The notes below the pieces were generated by a model. That model saw only the letters and a list, made by a program, of their open reading frames with translations. It was not told the DNA's origin and did no database searches. DNA of 62,936 bases, the filler included. It is 9 parts of 9 records of this genome, joined end to end, with 100 filler letters (N's around TTAATTAATTAA, not from the genome) between each part and the next. Parts side by side here need not be neighbours in the genome. Positions count along the whole stretch, not along the records: positions 34,884 to 40,281 come from SRR31147125_101701; 8 more parts are not named here. One strand, given 5' to 3'. The translations under genes and the position numbers were made by a program. Below are positions 6,739 to 52,131 of the stretch, piece by piece. Numbering within the stretch: position 1 is the first letter of the stretch; each line of letters begins with the position of its first letter.

Positions 6739-6838
6739 NNNNNNNNNNNNNNNNNNNNNNNNNNNNNNNNNNNNNNNNNNNNTTAATTAATTAANNNNNN
6801 NNNNNNNNNNNNNNNNNNNNNNNNNNNNNNNNNNNNNN
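6739..6838. other. Artificial contig linker
   Basis: N44-TTAATTAATTAA-N44, stops in all six frames. Confidence 0.98.
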
Positions 6839-12129: not shown

Positions 12130-12229
12130 NNNNNNNNNNNNNNNNNNNNNNNNNNNNNNNNNNNNNNNNNNNNTTAATTAATTAANNNNNNNNNNNNNNN
12201 NNNNNNNNNNNNNNNNNNNNNNNNNNNNN
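12130..12229. other. Artificial contig linker
   Basis: N44-TTAATTAATTAA-N44. Confidence 0.98.
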
Positions 12230-18483: not shown

Positions 18484-18583
18484 NNNNNNNNNNNNNNNNN
18501 NNNNNNNNNNNNNNNNNNNNNNNNNNNTTAATTAATTAANNNNNNNNNNNNNNNNNNNNNNNNNNNNNNNNNNNNNNNNNNNN
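18484..18583. other. Artificial contig linker
   Basis: N44-TTAATTAATTAA-N44. Confidence 0.98.
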
Positions 18584-28155: not shown

Positions 28156-28255
28156 NNNNNNNNNNNNNNNNNNNNNNNNNNNNNNNNNNNNNNNNNNNNT
28201 TAATTAATTAANNNNNNNNNNNNNNNNNNNNNNNNNNNNNNNNNNNNNNNNNNNN
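28156..28255. other. Artificial contig linker
   Basis: N44-TTAATTAATTAA-N44. Confidence 0.98.
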
Positions 28256-34783: not shown

Positions 34784-34883
34784 NNNNNNNNNNNNNNNNN
34801 NNNNNNNNNNNNNNNNNNNNNNNNNNNTTAATTAATTAANNNNNNNNNNNNNNNNNNNNNNNNNNNNNNNNNNNNNNNNNNNN
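34784..34883. other. Artificial contig linker
   Basis: N44-TTAATTAATTAA-N44. Confidence 0.98.
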
Positions 34884-35226: not shown

Positions 35227-36330
35227 TCAGTTTGGAGGCAATTCATCGTCGCCGGACGGGTTGAATGTCATTTGAAGCGATTTTCTGATCGTCTCAAGCC
35301 CCAAGGATTTGAGATATCGTTCCGTGGTCCGCGGACTCTGGTGTCGTAAAAGTTGCTGGATATGACCGAGGGAAACATTTTTTCGCCATAACCGGGATGC
35401 AAACATGTGACGGATCGAATGAAACCCAAATGGTCTTACTCCAGCCTTATTACATAGCTTCTCCATGAAATGCTGGCGCTTCTGAAATGGTTTCCCATAA
35501 TAGTCATCACAAAAGGCGGTTTGTGACAAACAGACAAACACATGATCTTGATCCAGGCCCGCCATCGTCCTGCGTTCTTTTAACCATGCCGTTAGATCCC
35601 GGCAGAGTTGTTTAGTCATGGGTATCCAGTCACCTTCCAAACCACCGTCCCGCTTACGGGTTTGCAGATAAACCTGCTCCCTGACAAAATCGACGTCGGA
35701 CCATTTCAGGTTGAACAATTCGCTTCGACGCGCACCGAGATGGAAAAAAGCCAGCAGCATCACCTGGTCCTGCCTTTCGCAAATGGCATAGACTTCCCAG
35801 AAATCCACTTCAGGAGGAACGTATCGTACGTTTTTTTCCACCTTGAATCTTTCGCATGTCAAAAAGAGGTTGGGCATATGGGGCCAATCCTCAATATTGC
35901 GTTCTCCCCAGCGCCAGGCCGCCCCTAAATTCTTTCTTGCTTTGTTGGCTGCGTGACCGCTGATCGTTGTTGATATGTGACGAAGGAAGTTACGAACCGC
36001 ATCTCGTTTAATCTCCTCGACAGGTGTTTCCATGGAATAGCCGCTATGATCGATAAAGCGGGAGAACGCCTTTCTTTTTTCTTCATAGGTTTTTTGGGAA
36101 TAGCGGGCTTTCACTTCATCGAGGTATTCATTGATCCAGACGATGATTGACAAACATTTGGTGGCGATCGATTCCTGTTCGAGACGCTTTCTGGTCTCGA
36201 GTTCCCACTGCATGGCGGCTTGTTTTGACGCCTTGCTGGTATCCGGGAACAGTTTGGACCTTTTCACGCCGTTCACCATTATCTGGCTGATGTAGCGCCG
36301 CTTGCCCCTTTTCACGATGATTGTAGGCAT
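35227..36330 (-). CDS. int: Tyrosine recombinase / phage integrase
   Basis: Catalytic residues in order: GARRSEL, TRKR, FHSIRH, LRHQ, TERY. Basic N-terminal arm-binding-like region. Confidence 0.93.
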   Translation of the reverse strand: MPTIIVKRGKRRYISQIMVNGVKRSKLFPDTSKASKQAAMQWELETRKRLEQESIATKCLSIIVWINEYLDEVKARYSQKTYEEKRKAFSRFIDHSGYSMETPVEEIKRDAVRNFLRHISTTISGHAANKARKNLGAAWRWGERNIEDWPHMPNLFLTCERFKVEKNVRYVPPEVDFWEVYAICERQDQVMLLAFFHLGARRSELFNLKWSDVDFVREQVYLQTRKRDGGLEGDWIPMTKQLCRDLTAWLKERRTMAGLDQDHVFVCLSQTAFCDDYYGKPFQKRQHFMEKLCNKAGVRPFGFHSIRHMFASRLWRKNVSLGHIQQLLRHQSPRTTERYLKSLGLETIRKSLQMTFNPSGDDELPPN

Positions 36331-36511
36331 GGCTGAATACTTGCTTGATCAATTTTTCAAAGAACCGATACCGGTTCGGTGACACTTCGACGCCGCCCCA
36401 TCTGCTTGCATACCGGTTGACGGTGCGGGGATCGATCCGCAACAGTTGGGCGAGTTCCTTTGCAGTCAACGATCTTCCGAATTCTTTTTCAAGTTCATCG
36501 ACGACATCCAT
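36128..36511 (-). CDS. Excisionase-like HTH protein, overlapping the integrase 5' end
   Basis: LTAKELAQLLRIDPRTV HTH and a YRF wing; AGGGA RBS upstream; directly upstream of int. Confidence 0.7.
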   Translation of the reverse strand: MDVVDELEKEFGRSLTAKELAQLLRIDPRTVNRYASRWGGVEVSPNRYRFFEKLIKQVFSHAYNHREKGQAALHQPDNGERREKVQTVPGYQQGVKTSRHAVGTRDQKASRTGIDRHQMFVNHRLDQ

Positions 36512-36868
36512 TTTTTCCCTACGCTGTTTTTATTTAATAAAAATTGAAAAGCTGCCATCGTAATAGGATTTGATTCCGTTTCCGTATTAATGTAATTTGA
36601 GTGTAGACCTGTCTATGATTTCAGCATTATTGAAACCCTCGAACGTTGAAACCCTATTGCGCGTCAATTTGCGATAATAAATTACATAAATATTTAATTA
36701 ATGGAACATGCTTCTGAATTCTTGGCGGAAAACCAAAATGTGATGTAAATCAGGCGAGTGTGAGGTGCTGTCGTTCGTATTTCAGAGGGAAATCAGGCTC
36801 AATTGTTGGGCTTTAGGCCATCGTTACATAAAAAAATTACTGGTTGTCAAGAAAAAAATTCATATAAA

Positions 36869-37447
36869 ATGAAAAATAATCATGGTAACATCGATTTTCA
36901 TGAAGTCCTCCAACGTATCGAAAAAGAGATGGAAGGCTATTCCAGGACGGAATGGGCGAATAAAGTGGGGGTGAGGATCAACGTGGTATCCAATATTCAC
37001 GGTGCCAAGGCCAGGCAAAATCCTTCGTTAAATTACATACTATCTGTATCCGTGGCGACCCGGAAGCCAATGGACTATTTTCTATGGGGACGAATATCCT
37101 ACATTCCATCTGAACTGCCCGACCCGATGATAAAAGAGGATGAAAAAACATACTCGGATCCCGATACCAGCAAAGATATGATTGATTCGGCGACCCAAGA
37201 CCCTGAGATGGGCAAACGGGTGCGCTATTGGCGTGAAGATATTGGATTCAGTATAGCGGAAGTTTCGAAACGTTCCGGCTTATCTGTCGATCTAATCAAA
37301 AGCATCGAAGCTGGCAATCACACAAGTACGGATGTGATCGTTAAATTGGCCGATACTTTGCGGTGTTCCATCGATTTTTTGTTAGGATGCGGTAGTGCAT
37401 CTGTTGCTCACCAGGCACCTTTAGACAGGAGTAGGGAAGGGCAGTAA
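36869..37447 (+). CDS. XRE-family repressor with two HTH domains
   Basis: Domain 1 SRTEWANKVGV...MDYFLWG; domain 2 GKRVRYWRE...SIDFLLG. Divergent from xis. Start at 36869 (ATG) or 36803 (TTG). Confidence 0.8.
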   Translation: MKNNHGNIDFHEVLQRIEKEMEGYSRTEWANKVGVRINVVSNIHGAKARQNPSLNYILSVSVATRKPMDYFLWGRISYIPSELPDPMIKEDEKTYSDPDTSKDMIDSATQDPEMGKRVRYWREDIGFSIAEVSKRSGLSVDLIKSIEAGNHTSTDVIVKLADTLRCSIDFLLGCGSASVAHQAPLDRSREGQ

Positions 37448-37747: not shown

Positions 37748-38578
37748 TCATTCTTCGATGCTGCCTTGACTTTCATCCAGCTTTACTGGCAGTTGCAATA
37801 TAAAGCAGGCTCCTGTCTTGCATTTGGTGTCTATGGTGATGTCGCCGCCTAAACGGCGGGCCAATATCAGTGAACCGGCCAATCCAAGCCCATGCCCCTT
37901 CTCCCGGACCTTCCTATTGCATGCCTTGATTTGAGTGTAACATCGAAAAAGCTCAACCTGGTCTGCGGGTGCGATACCTTCGCCGTCATCACTGACACGG
38001 ATCTCTATGTTCGATCGTTTTAAAGCCACATGAACGTCAACCCGAGATTTCTTATGCTGCAATGCATTTCGCAATAAATTATTAATAATATGGACGAATT
38101 TGACCTCATCTTGATATAGAACCAGCCCATCAACTTCTGGGGAAATATCCAGAATGATTCCATTGTCCATAAGATATTTATGTCGTCGATCGAACTCATC
38201 GACGTCCGTCTTCAATTCATCTATTAGCGGGTGGAACTCGGTTTGCCGGAAATCGACCAGAATTTTTTTGATGGAATGAACAGCGTCAAATCGTATAGGG
38301 CATGTACGACCGCTCTCACTGCTTCCCACCTCTAATAGCGTATGAATGATATTTTTCAGCTTGGCCGAACAGCGCAAGGACCGCCCGAGGACGTGTTGCT
38401 GGGCTTCATTCAATCGTCCAAATTTGTTCTGCTGTTCAAGGAGAAGTCGATTGCTGCTTTCAATCACACTCAAGGGGCCTTTGAGTTCATGAATAAGAAA
38501 CTGAATGTCGATTTGGCGAAAAAAATCATCCGACTGTTTCCGGGAGGGCAGCGGGATACTTGGAGTGATGTCAGTCAT
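37748..38578 (-). CDS. Sensor-less histidine kinase (HisKA + HATPase only)
   Basis: IHELKGPL, NLLRNA, DDGEGI and GHGLGL boxes; only about 25 residues precede the H-box. Confidence 0.88.
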   Translation of the reverse strand: MTDITPSIPLPSRKQSDDFFRQIDIQFLIHELKGPLSVIESSNRLLLEQQNKFGRLNEAQQHVLGRSLRCSAKLKNIIHTLLEVGSSESGRTCPIRFDAVHSIKKILVDFRQTEFHPLIDELKTDVDEFDRRHKYLMDNGIILDISPEVDGLVLYQDEVKFVHIINNLLRNALQHKKSRVDVHVALKRSNIEIRVSDDGEGIAPADQVELFRCYTQIKACNRKVREKGHGLGLAGSLILARRLGGDITIDTKCKTGACFILQLPVKLDESQGSIEE

Positions 38579-40281
38579 GTACCGCCTCCTTCATCATTCT
38601 TCGACAATTTATTGTTGTCACTGTCTGCGTCAACGAATTGTATGCGAAAAGTGGTACCGCCGGATCGGTGACAATGTTCGACCGAGTCACAATGATTACA
38701 TTTATTCGTGCTGCCCGGGCATTTATCTGCACTCGTCGGAATATGCCGACACCGTTTGGATGTTAACAGGAGTCTGATCGGGTAGCGTTCTGCAAAGACA
38801 CGCATGCGCAACAGATCCAGGCCGCGGCCACCCGAATCGAAGTTAAACGGTTTTCCCGTACTATATTGGTAGGCGTCTGTGGCGGTGAAAAAATTACCTT
38901 TTATTAATTGCTGATTTTCATCTGTAATGCCAATGCCGGTATCAGATACGATTAGTTCGGGTCCGACATCTCCCGTCTGTACCAAGACCTTGACCATTCC
39001 GCCATCCGGCGTATATTCAACGGCATTGCGAACCAGTCCGGTGATAATTTTATCCAGGATTTCTAACGGTAAATGGACAAACCCGACATCCTCTTCAAGA
39101 TCAGTTTGAAAATCGAGCCGTCGATGGGCGAACATGGGGGTGAGTTCAATGATTTTGTCCGCCACGAATCGGTGTAGGCGAATCCGCTCCTTCGGCAATG
39201 TCCCGCGACTGAAAAATGAATCGATGTGCTGGCGAATTCGCCGTACTACTGCCGAACTGGTTTCTATTCCGACAAGGGCCTCGAATTCATCGATGCAGAG
39301 TGCCAATAATGCAGAAAGGGACTGTTGAATCTGTTGATCCGGTTCGCTGACGATGTCTTCCAATTTAAACTGCATGTCGATAATGCGTTCAATGTTTCGC
39401 TGACAACGCTCTAACAATCGCGAGGTTGATCGCTTGTCGGAAGATTGATTGCCGGCTAACATTTCAAACGATGCCGCCAATACGGAGATGGGCGTTCTTA
39501 ATTCGTGTGATAGGCGATCGATAATACGATCCTTTGCTTGGTTGAGGATTTGAACTTTTTCGTATGATTTGCGCAGTGATTCATTGATGCTGGCGTTTTC
39601 AACGGGCATCGCCACCATGCTGGCAATGCTGCTTAACAGGGTCATATCACCCTGATCGAAGTTTCCATCGACTCTGTCAGTCATGACCATGACACCCATG
39701 ATTCGCTTATCCACCTGCATGGGGGCCGCAATCAAATTCCGGAATCTATTGGTAGAGGGTTTCAATCGCCAGACTTTGAATTCACCCTCATCATTGATAT
39801 TATTGTTAATGTATGAACTACCGGAAAGAACAACTTTTCCAGCTATGTCATCGTTCAGAGAAACGAGGGATTCGGAAAATGTATCATCAAATTCGCAATC
39901 CCCTGCCATGCCTGTACGGGAATAAATTTTATCGCCCCCTCCATTAATGAGGACAATATAGGCATTTCGGACATTCATCAGATGTTGCGCCTGACGAGTA
40001 ATATAAATCAAGCAGCTTTTTAAATCGCTTTTGTGATGCAATGCTTTGGCTATTTTAAAAAGCGCCTGAGTGGTTCGGGCATCTTTTTGGGACTGGGTAA
40101 TATCCCGCATGGTAGTGATCAGACCGTTTGGCTGATCGTCTTGATCGTATAACGCGGATCCATCGTAAATAACATCCAGTACGCGGCCATCCTTGGTTAA
40201 ACGCTTGGTTTCCAAGCCGTAGAACACACCATTGGTCAACAGGCTCGCTTTTCCGGTGCGGGTCTTTTTTACCTGATCCGC
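38575..40281 (-). CDS. Cytoplasmic PAS-GAF histidine kinase with cysteine-rich insert, 5' truncated
   Basis: PAC motif (TKDGRVLDV...RDIT), GAF (LIAAPM), SHELRTP, LVRNA, DTGIGI, GRGLDL, then C-x9-C-x6-C-x2-C-x5-C before GGTTF. Confidence 0.88.
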   Translation of the reverse strand, partial: ADQVKKTRTGKASLLTNGVFYGLETKRLTKDGRVLDVIYDGSALYDQDDQPNGLITTMRDITQSQKDARTTQALFKIAKALHHKSDLKSCLIYITRQAQHLMNVRNAYIVLINGGGDKIYSRTGMAGDCEFDDTFSESLVSLNDDIAGKVVLSGSSYINNNINDEGEFKVWRLKPSTNRFRNLIAAPMQVDKRIMGVMVMTDRVDGNFDQGDMTLLSSIASMVAMPVENASINESLRKSYEKVQILNQAKDRIIDRLSHELRTPISVLAASFEMLAGNQSSDKRSTSRLLERCQRNIERIIDMQFKLEDIVSEPDQQIQQSLSALLALCIDEFEALVGIETSSAVVRRIRQHIDSFFSRGTLPKERIRLHRFVADKIIELTPMFAHRRLDFQTDLEEDVGFVHLPLEILDKIITGLVRNAVEYTPDGGMVKVLVQTGDVGPELIVSDTGIGITDENQQLIKGNFFTATDAYQYSTGKPFNFDSGGRGLDLLRMRVFAERYPIRLLLTSKRCRHIPTSADKCPGSTNKCNHCDSVEHCHRSGGTTFRIQFVDADSDNNKLSKNDEGGGT

Positions 40282-40381
40282 NNNNNNNNNNNNNNNNNNN
40301 NNNNNNNNNNNNNNNNNNNNNNNNNTTAATTAATTAANNNNNNNNNNNNNNNNNNNNNNNNNNNNNNNNNNNNNNNNNNNN
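40282..40381. other. Artificial contig linker
   Basis: N44-TTAATTAATTAA-N44. Confidence 0.98.
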
Positions 40382-42179
40382 GCTGAAACAGATCAATGAG
40401 ATCACATCAGCTCTGACTGACATTCCTACACTTTTTCCCATTGAATTTACCCGGGATTCGTCCGAGTTTAACAAGTTGTGGGACGTTCGCAAAGGACTCT
40501 TTCCTTCTGTGAGTGCGGACCGGGAAGCTGGCACCACTGTTTTAATCGAAGATGTTGCCTTTCCAGTGTCCCGCCTGGCTGAGGCAACAACTGACCTGCA
40601 ATTACTTTTCAGAAAACACGGTTTCGATGATGCCATCATCTGGGGACATGCTCTGGAAGGGAATTTACACTTTGTGTTGAAACAGGATTTTAATGTGCCT
40701 AAAGAGATTACGCGTTATGAGAATTTCATAAATGATCTCACTCATATGGTCGTGAAGAAATACGATGGTTCTCTCAAGGCAGAGCATGGTACGGGCCGCA
40801 ACATGGCCCCATTTGTCGAGTATGAATGGGGAAAAGAGGCCTATAACATCATGCTGGACATAAAAGCGATTTTTGATCCAAAGTCGCTTTTAAATCCGGG
40901 TGTTATAATAAATCAGGATAAAAAAATACACCTCAAAAACCTGAAACCCTTACCTGTTGCACATGAACTGGTGGATAAATGTATCGAGTGTGGATTTTGT
41001 GAGGTTTTTTGTGTTTCCAATCAGTTGACGTTATCTGCCCGGCAGCGAATTGTAGTTTACCGCGAGATCGCCCGATTAAAAGCCACAGGCACGGAACCGC
41101 ATCGCCTGGCACAACTATTAACGTTCTATGATTATTATGGCAACCAGACCTGCGCGACCGATGGATTATGCGCACTTGGGTGTCCGGTGGATATTGATAC
41201 CGGGCAACTCATCAAAGCACTTCGACACGAGTCTGTTTCACCCAGGGCGAATCGGATAGCAGCCAGGATTGCAAAAAATCTCCATAAAGTCACCGCATTG
41301 GCTCGTGTTTGCTTGAATGTGGTACACGGAATCCATTTGATCCTTGGCTCTAACTTATTGGTAAATATTGCAAAAGGAATCCGAAAGCTATCAGGCAACA
41401 GAATTCCTCTTTATACACCTTTTATGCCCAGAGGTGCAAAACGAATTACAAAGCTGCCTGTCAATCATAATCCATCGCCAAAAGTCGTCTATTTTCCATC
41501 CTGCATCACTCGTTCCATGGGCGTTTCAAAGGATTATAATAATGAAATGGACCTTACCCGTAAAACAGCTGAACTTTTGCGGAAGGCTGGTTATGAAATT
41601 CTCTATCCGGACAACATGAATAATCTGTGCTGTGGTATGGCCTTTTCCAGTAAAGGATTTAAGGAAACAGGCGATGAAAAAGCACAGGATTTAAATGAGG
41701 TTCTGTTAAAGATAACGAATCAGGGAGAGATACCCGTGCTATGCGATATGAGTCCCTGTTTGTATCGGATGAAAGAGACGCTCGATGAACGACTCAAACT
41801 ATATGAACCGATCGAATTTAGCCTCGAATATTTATCCACACGTTTAAGGTTTGAAAAAAAGGCAGAAACCATTGCCATTCATTCTGTGTGTAGTGCCAAA
41901 AAGATGGGACTGGAAGAAAAGTTTTTGCAGCTGGCAAATATGTGCGCAGAGAATGTGGTGGTAACTGAAGCCAACTGCTGCGGATTTGCCGGAGACAGGG
42001 GATTCAGTTTTCCGGAGCTAAATGAACATGGTCTGAGACATCTCAAAACTCAAATACCGGAAGATTGCCAGCAGGGATATTCAACCAGCCGGACGTGTGA
42101 GATTGGCATTTCTCAATATAGTGGGATTACGTATAAATCCATATTATATTTGGTGGACGAATGCACACGGCCTCGTTGA
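40382..42179 (+). CDS. FAD/Fe-S D-lactate dehydrogenase (Dld-II type), 5' truncated
   Basis: GHALEGNLHF, GSLKAEHGTGR, LNPGVI, CIECGFCEVFC, CATDGLCALGCP and CCG domains. Confidence 0.88.
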
Positions 42180-46761: not shown

Positions 46762-46861
46762 NNNNNNNNNNNNNNNNNNNNNNNNNNNNNNNNNNNNNNN
46801 NNNNNTTAATTAATTAANNNNNNNNNNNNNNNNNNNNNNNNNNNNNNNNNNNNNNNNNNNN
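46762..46861. other. Artificial contig linker
   Basis: N44-TTAATTAATTAA-N44. Confidence 0.98.
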
Positions 46862-52031: not shown

Positions 52032-52131
52032 NNNNNNNNNNNNNNNNNNNNNNNNNNNNNNNNNNNNNNNNNNNNTTAATTAATTAANNNNNNNNNNNNN
52101 NNNNNNNNNNNNNNNNNNNNNNNNNNNNNNN
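52032..52131. other. Artificial contig linker
   Basis: N44-TTAATTAATTAA-N44. Confidence 0.98.

Follow-up and report, generated by a model that had tools for sequence, protein, structure and literature searches.

The locus described here raises the question of whether a histidine kinase can carry a metal or iron-sulfur (Fe-S) site within its catalytic and ATP-binding (CA) domain. The gene in question lies on the minus strand of one contig (34884..40281) of the analyzed window, a stretch of 62,936 nucleotides with an overall guanine-cytosine content of 46%, in which nine short contigs are chained by eight linkers; genes on the two sides of a linker are not neighbors. It encodes a sensor histidine kinase (product P0001) whose CA domain, the HATPase_c domain of Pfam, contains an insert with five cysteines, four of which are near-invariant among relatives. 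Judging from their sequences, P0001 and these relatives probably form a family of histidine kinases of sulfate-reducer-type bacteria with a Cys4 metal or iron-sulfur center in the ATP-binding domain. That the module is an Fe-S center coupled to kinase activity is a plausible reading, which we put forward tentatively and weigh below against its alternatives.

The Cysteine Insert within the ATP-Binding Domain

Cysteines 497, 507, 514, 517, and 523 of P0001 correspond exactly to positions 38751..38671 of the minus strand, a segment that runs from C497 to C523 and reads C-x9-C-x6-C-x2-C-x5-C. An earlier note, made from the letters of this DNA, had placed this pattern inside HATPase_c at 38671..38751, and these coordinates proved exact. 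The note had also set the insert between a variant G2 box, GRGLDL, and the terminal GGT strand, a position borne out by the sequence and by the Pfam placement. The Pfam match of HATPase_c spreads 139 residues (395-533) over 100 profile positions (6-105), compared with 110 residues over 109 profile positions in the neighboring kinase. Between the last two strands, the cysteine insert takes the place of a short turn and adds about 31 residues. Counted along the sequence, the G1 aspartate and the first G2 glycine are 38 residues apart in P0001 and 30 in the neighboring kinase; the ATP lid is therefore some 8 residues longer than that of its neighbor, in agreement with the extended lid that had been noted before. 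The G2 box itself departs from the canonical GxGLGL, since it reads GRGLDL in P0001 and has GGxGxDLLR as its family consensus, with a near-invariant aspartate replacing the third glycine of the textbook motif family-wide (GGxGxD).

The CA domain was modeled with AlphaFold2 (residues 374-554, with the 66-row alignment A1), giving a predicted local distance difference test score (pLDDT) of 83.9. The lid was poorly defined in this model (block means of 52 and 55), and the insert was modeled confidently (block means of 91, 87, 90, and 94), mostly as coil with two short helices. In such a predicted structure, confident modeling together with little secondary structure is a pattern typical of metal-held loops. 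The core of the model matches canonical CA domains, namely those of DivL (Z 13.3), RetS (12.8), ZraS (12.5), and WalK (12.4); the top match, DivL 4q20_B, aligned over 117 residues with a root-mean-square deviation (rmsd) of 2.0. These structural alignments span only 117-128 residues, and the lid and the insert fall outside them.

A chance origin of the cysteine cluster is unlikely. Across the window, translated in six frames to 125,868 residues, the pattern C-x6-C-x2-C-x5-C is seen once, at the kinase site, and it arose in 4 of 200,000 shuffles of P0001, while at least five cysteines within 27 residues were seen in 363 of 200,000 such shuffles. The conservation of the cysteines in relatives is a stronger argument against chance than these shuffle counts.

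Conservation of the Cysteines

The query cysteines were mapped with phmmer onto 120 closer proteins and onto the 150 best representatives (50% identity), of which 144 were counted after six without coverage of the region had been dropped. C497 and C514 were present throughout (120/120 closer proteins and 144/144 representatives each), and C507 (117/120 and 142/144) and C523 (118/120 and 140/144) nearly so. C517, however, was kept in 84/120 closer proteins and 79/144 representatives; the other residues at this position in the representatives were isoleucine (29), valine (23), leucine (6), alanine (5), and tyrosine (1). A second alignment, queried with the dimerization and histidine phosphotransfer (DHp) and CA domains, gave the same ranking, with C497 in 114/114, C507 in 110/113, C514 in 112/112, C517 in 57/111, and C523 in 108/111. 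The catalytic residues in this alignment were kept in 104/105 (H245), 111/112 (N405), and 116/116 (D433/G435/G437) rows, a level of conservation that C497, C507, C514, and C523 roughly share. With H245, N405, and D433/G435/G437 intact, the predicted kinases of the family are probably active.

Sixty-nine of the 150 representatives have the strict C-x9-C-x6-C-x2-C-x5-C and 62 have C-x9-C-x6-C-x8-C only; 7 have the last four cysteines with none at x9, and the remaining 12 comprise fragments, frameshifted tails, and variant spacings. Fragments excepted, the insert or a variant of it is thus present in all 150 best representatives. On a FastTree phylogeny of 133 CA domains (73 with C517 and 60 without, the C517 column itself being part of the alignment), the state of C517 changes at least nine times, a raw count on the observed labels. 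P508 is found in at least 90% of the alignment rows and G509 is invariant. Since C517 varies, C497 is invariant, and the CPG is kept, the conserved unit is C-x9-CPG-x4-C-x8-C, and C517 appears to be an optional fifth cysteine at an otherwise hydrophobic position. Invariance across homologs, which the earlier note had made the check on its cysteines, therefore holds or nearly holds for C497, C507, C514, and C523 and fails for C517. Rare members lack C507 (four proteins) and others lack C523; three of those without C507 retain four cysteines.

A subgroup of the Desulfobacula/Desulfotignum type (L065, L070, L072, L074, and L077) keeps C-x9-CPG-x4-C and has a shorter tail, in which a single cysteine in P-C-(D/N)-G replaces C-x2-C-x5-C or C-x8-C.

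Outside the insert, the helical stretch that follows the HisKA match contains a sixth cysteine, C315 (39295-39297, minus strand), which was kept in 116/120 closer relatives compared with 29/87 broader representatives and is a subfamily feature. A cluster based in the GAF or DHp domain was considered and rejected, as C315 is confined to the close subfamily and the GAF cysteines C76 and C115, together with C279, are not conserved in relatives.

Family Extent and Hosts

Residues 380-554 were used as the query of a protein search restricted to lengths of 304-970 residues, which returned 370 proteins at E ≤ 1e-3. The best 120 of these share 46-79% identity over residues 380-554, and the few that are named come from metagenome-assembled genomes (MAGs) of Deltaproteobacteria, Thermodesulfobacteriota, or Desulfobacteraceae. 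An exhaustive scan of 1.84 billion representatives of 50% identity clusters gave 4021 matches at E ≤ 1e-3, a set made up of kinases of the general kind; 264 of them reached E ≤ 1e-10 and 78 reached E ≤ 1e-30. Relatives are also encoded by 185 stretches in species genomes; the best 80 of the 185 belong nearly all to MAGs of Desulfobacterales, Desulfatiglandales, Syntrophaceae, or Syntrophorhabdus, the exceptions being Desulfosarcina alkanivorans PL12, a cultured organism with a single copy of the gene (L008/L081), as well as one Candidatus Vecturithrix and a MAG that is labeled Pseudomonadota and belongs to the phylum sample of D. alkanivorans. Two phyla were sampled with the CA-domain profile A2 (E ≤ 1e-25), those of D. 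alkanivorans and Vecturithrix. With 12 candidates scored per genome, the counts are lower bounds: at least 43 of 301 sampled genomes of the former match the profile, with 1-5 copies each, and at least 2 of 9 of the latter. Among named records, nearly all of which belong to Desulfobacterota, the family is restricted to anaerobic lineages. The cysteine tetrad in the ATP-binding domain spans hundreds of sequence clusters, and the sulfate reducers and syntrophs that have it often encode several paralogs each.

The family proteins are soluble and cytoplasmic. A 19-residue window with a mean hydropathy of at least 1.6 was present in 6 of 91 full-length-like relatives, and all six windows are strands inside domains. 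Structural disulfides are unlikely in soluble proteins of this kind. The cysteine CA module also occurs with other N-terminal domains recognized by Pfam, such as PilJ and PAS_10. NCBIfam matched P0001 with generic kinase models alone, all far below their cut-offs and none extending past residue 462, and the ESM Atlas returned generic HATPase_c clusters alone. Whether its site is Fe-S or zinc, the cysteine insert cleanly marks the family and goes unrecognized by present Pfam and NCBIfam models.

Two family members stand in tandem in one locus (L044:2071-7395), where the cysteine-insert stretches are letter-for-letter the same, and the pair has the appearance of a recent duplication. In several further genomes, 2-5 family copies are spread over different contigs.

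Proposed Metal Site and Alternative Explanations

The proteins are cytoplasmic and their hosts anaerobic, the spacing of the cysteines is fixed, their conservation reaches that of catalytic residues, and the loop is confidently modeled with little secondary structure; for these reasons, the insert is read as a Cys4 metal center. It would constitute a family-defining tetra-cysteine metal-binding module in the CA domain of soluble PAS-GAF kinases of anaerobic Desulfobacterota, with C497, C507, C514, and C523 (C-x9-CPG-x4-C-x8-C) as the four putative ligands and C517 as an optional one, and this module would most likely carry an Fe-S cluster. Metal binding, the kind of metal, and the coupling to activity are what we infer from this evidence. 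An Fe-S cluster is favored by the 9/6/8 core without a CxxC knuckle, by the proline directly after C507, by the presence of C-x2-C-x5-C in about half of the members, and by the limitation of the family to anaerobes. The spacing C-x2-C-x5-C is familiar from FNR, WhiB-like proteins, and endonuclease III.

As to how such a center could act, the module stands directly before the last strand, SGGTTF, and the geometry of this strand and of the nucleotide pocket would be governed by how far the module is occupied by metal or by its redox state. SGGTTF is presumably the G3 box, or motif IV of the GHKL proteins, with its threonine at the adenine pocket, which suggests that the state of the metal site could be transmitted to nucleotide binding. 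Autophosphorylation would then depend on the cluster besides the PAS and GAF inputs. In its most explicit form, the proposal holds that an Fe-S cluster on the CA domain, beside the strand that closes the pocket, acts as a direct switch operated by O2, NO, sulfide, redox, or iron status independently of PAS and GAF; this we regard as possible rather than probable. If true, it would make P0001 a two-input kinase and would add a new cofactor location to two-component signaling, present in about one in seven of the sampled Desulfobacterota genomes.

Several points weigh against an Fe-S center. The classic Fe-S spacing is complete only with C517, a residue that the family can do without (79/144 representatives), which at the level of sequence argues against C507/C514/C517/C523 as an obligatory ligand set. 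Small inserts with a Cys4 site frequently bind structural zinc, and the restriction to anaerobes may merely mirror phylogeny. Furthermore, no sequence, profile, or fold match ties the insert to a known metal site: Pfam gave no match for the insert alone at E ≤ 10, and a profile search of the PDB with the insert returned chance rows only (E 2.6-7.1). Folded alone as a 53-residue model, the insert reached a pLDDT of 87.5 in the best of five models (55.6-74.5 in the others). The comparisons made with this model, which is small and gives them low power, yielded one chain at Z 2.2 among 48,161 chains with VIA-align, and none at E ≤ 0.001 with Foldseek.

The alternative that fares best under this evidence is a structural Zn(II) at the four invariant cysteines, which would rigidify a lineage-specific loop without a sensory role; such a loop may dock a partner, for instance the downstream kinase or a receiver. 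Four near-invariant cysteines in a compact, confidently modeled loop would suit zinc, as would the hydrophobic replacements of C517, which are those of a buried non-ligand position. Cys4 zinc sites are in addition the commonest small cysteine cluster, with a high base rate, and certain bacterial adenylate kinases offer a precedent, their lid containing a structural Cys4 metal site. However, most Zn(Cys)4 sites have a CxxC or CxxxxC knuckle, and the 9/6/8 spacing of the core contains neither. The insert also matched neither a zinc-ribbon nor a zinc-knuckle family or fold, which for a model of this small size is weak evidence. Zinc is thus a serious candidate, although short of a probable one; if correct, the insert would represent a structural elaboration of the Bergerat fold for which the literature searches gave no description.

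It is improbable that the cysteines are metal-free redox thiols whose reversible disulfides or persulfides tune the kinase in the manner of SrrB from Staphylococcus aureus. The hosts are exposed to sulfide and redox stress, and according to reviews the CA-domain disulfide of SrrB is able to tune its autokinase activity; however, four invariant cysteines at fixed spacing resemble a coordination sphere more than one or two disulfides, and the cysteine site of SrrB is not equivalent to the position of the insert, as detailed in the comparison with known systems.

A true homolog of the endonuclease III/MutY cluster loop, inserted into a kinase domain, is highly improbable, for although P0001 and 69/150 representatives have the exact C-x6-C-x2-C-x5-C after C-x9 and Escherichia coli Nth (L082) has the same motif at residues 187-203 as P0001 at 507-523, an hhalign comparison of the insert profile A3 (35 rows) with Nth gave a probability of 0.9% (E 0.06) over 25 columns at 20% identity, essentially the cysteines alone, the Pfam search gave nothing, the third cysteine of the motif is missing in about 45% of representatives, and an extra cysteine upstream is invariant. 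These results argue against common descent of the insert with the Nth cluster loop. Of the endonuclease III-like motif that the earlier note had described, the spacing at 507-523 therefore stands, but the motif is not the conserved unit, as it includes C517 and leaves out C497, which is invariant.

Gene Layout and Neighborhood

The features of the locus are listed in Table 1. The reading frame of the kinase is open upstream of its TTG to the contig end at 40281, where it meets a contig linker, and the gene is therefore 5'-truncated. The first 50 or so residues of P0001 resemble the final part of a PAS domain, a domain of which full-length relatives have one to several copies. Pfam scored P0001 at 30.7 bits for HisKA (cut-off 26.9) and at 38 bits for HATPase_c (cut-off 26.4).

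Table 1. Features of the kinase locus and of the contig joints, in positions of the window.
Feature	Position	Strand	Details
5'-truncated sensor histidine kinase gene	38575..40281	-	PAS tail, GAF, HisKA, HATPase_c
Kinase open reading frame (ORF)	38575..40239	-	Product P0001, 554 residues, numbered from TTG at 40239
GAF	39610..40026	-	Residues 72-210, Pfam above gathering score
HisKA (DHp)	39376..39534	-	Residues 236-288, H box SHELRTP, phospho-acceptor H245
HATPase_c catalytic domain	38641..39057	-	Residues 395-533; conserved N box N405, G1 D433/G435/G437
F box, ATP lid, and variant G2 box GGRGLDLLR	38806..38889	-	
Cysteine insert	38659..38754	-	Residues 496-527; C497, C507(-P-G), C514, C517, C523
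SGGTTF, opening of last strand	38647..38664	-	Directly after the insert; G527 conserved in 105/110
Second, sensor-less histidine kinase	37748..38578	-	HisKA and HATPase_c, 276 aa
Contig-joint linker truncating the kinase gene	40282..40381	none	N run, TTAATTAATTAA, N run
Contig linkers	6739-6838, 12130-12229, 18484-18583, 28156-28255, 34784-34883, 40282-40381, 46762-46861, 52032-52131		N-run/TTAATTAATTAA/N-run

The ATG of the second kinase overlaps the stop codon of the first. An ortholog of the second kinase (about 40% identity) is encoded within 400 nt downstream in 17 of the 74 loci with room for it, and in two further loci (L005 and L030) a similar gene lies 400-500 nt downstream. L028 has both kinases in a single fused frame, and L063 has the second kinase joined to a receiver. 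Eight loci (L001, L004, L008, L009, L012, L019, L021, and L037) continue with a receiver protein of 180-185 residues, made up of a receiver domain and an unassigned C-terminal tail, and a 185-residue protein of this type usually follows the second kinase. This arrangement suggests a three-protein module with two kinases. A tblastn search with the receivers of two relatives gave no match in the window. Below the second kinase, where relatives have the receiver gene, positions 35227-37447 contain an HTH_3 gene, a tyrosine recombinase (Phage_integrase), and an overlapping HTH_17-like ORF; in the window, the receiver may have been displaced or split off by integration of an element. The neighbors of other family members are unrelated, and the cysteine CA module is therefore not tied to this operon.

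On the next contig, positions 40476-42179 (plus strand) contain a gene that lacks its 5' end and resembles a lactate or glycolate dehydrogenase, with FAD-oxidase_C, 4Fe-4S dicluster, and CCG cysteine-rich domains.

Comparison with Known Systems

The cluster loop of endonuclease III and MutY shares its spacing with P0001 and about half of the kinase family, but the host domains differ, being an HhH glycosylase for the loop and a GHKL ATPase for the insert. Among kinases, SrrB is one of the closest known systems. Reviews call the disulfide in its CA domain unique among redox sites of catalytic domains, and it was the sole site of this kind in the literature found; its two cysteines are described as not conserved in all staphylococci. 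SrrB has a redox-relevant cysteine site, and the insert family possibly another, in the CA domain of a HisKA-type kinase and not in a sensor domain. The CA fold of SrrB (PDB 6paj) matches the CA model with Z 9.7 and an rmsd of 2.2 over 102 aligned residues. The aligned CA range of SrrB covers 128 residues compared with 166 of the model, which leaves no room for the insert and makes the two cysteine sites non-equivalent. One SrrB cysteine can be seen in the alignment, on the strand that follows the N box, whereas the insert cysteines stand before the last strand; likewise, a two-cysteine disulfide in SrrB contrasts with four near-invariant cysteines in a 31-residue insert.

Other signal input through the CA domain is represented by cyclic-di-GMP, which is bound by the CA domains of RavS and CckA. 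Apart from these cases and the SrrB disulfide, the reviews consulted place signal perception by histidine kinases in sensor domains. No description of a Cys4 insert or of an Fe-S site in a kinase CA domain was found in the full-text literature searched, with subscription journals largely outside its scope. If the insert carries an Fe-S cluster, it would offer strict anaerobes a mechanism for coupling phosphorylation signaling to redox or iron-sulfur status.

NreB, AirS, and CSK/Hik2 are histidine kinases that need an Fe-S cluster for their activity. N-terminal cluster ligands in PAS or GAF domains of the type associated with them were not found in P0001, its N-terminal part being judged through relatives aligned to the part present, and AirS itself reportedly carries its cluster outside the catalytic domain. 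AirS is tabulated under 'Oxygen / Redox sensing' in one review. The statement of the earlier note that Fe-S sensing kinases carry their clusters in input domains rather than the catalytic domain is in keeping with NreB, whose cluster is in a PAS domain, and with CSK/Hik2, whose cluster is located at the N-terminal Cys19. The clusters of NreB and CSK/Hik2 lie outside the catalytic domain, whereas the conserved cysteines of the insert family lie within HATPase_c. A further comparison is offered by FixT of Caulobacter, which has a four-cysteine Fe-S site on a receiver domain, that is, also on a core domain of two-component signaling, but not on the CA domain of a kinase.

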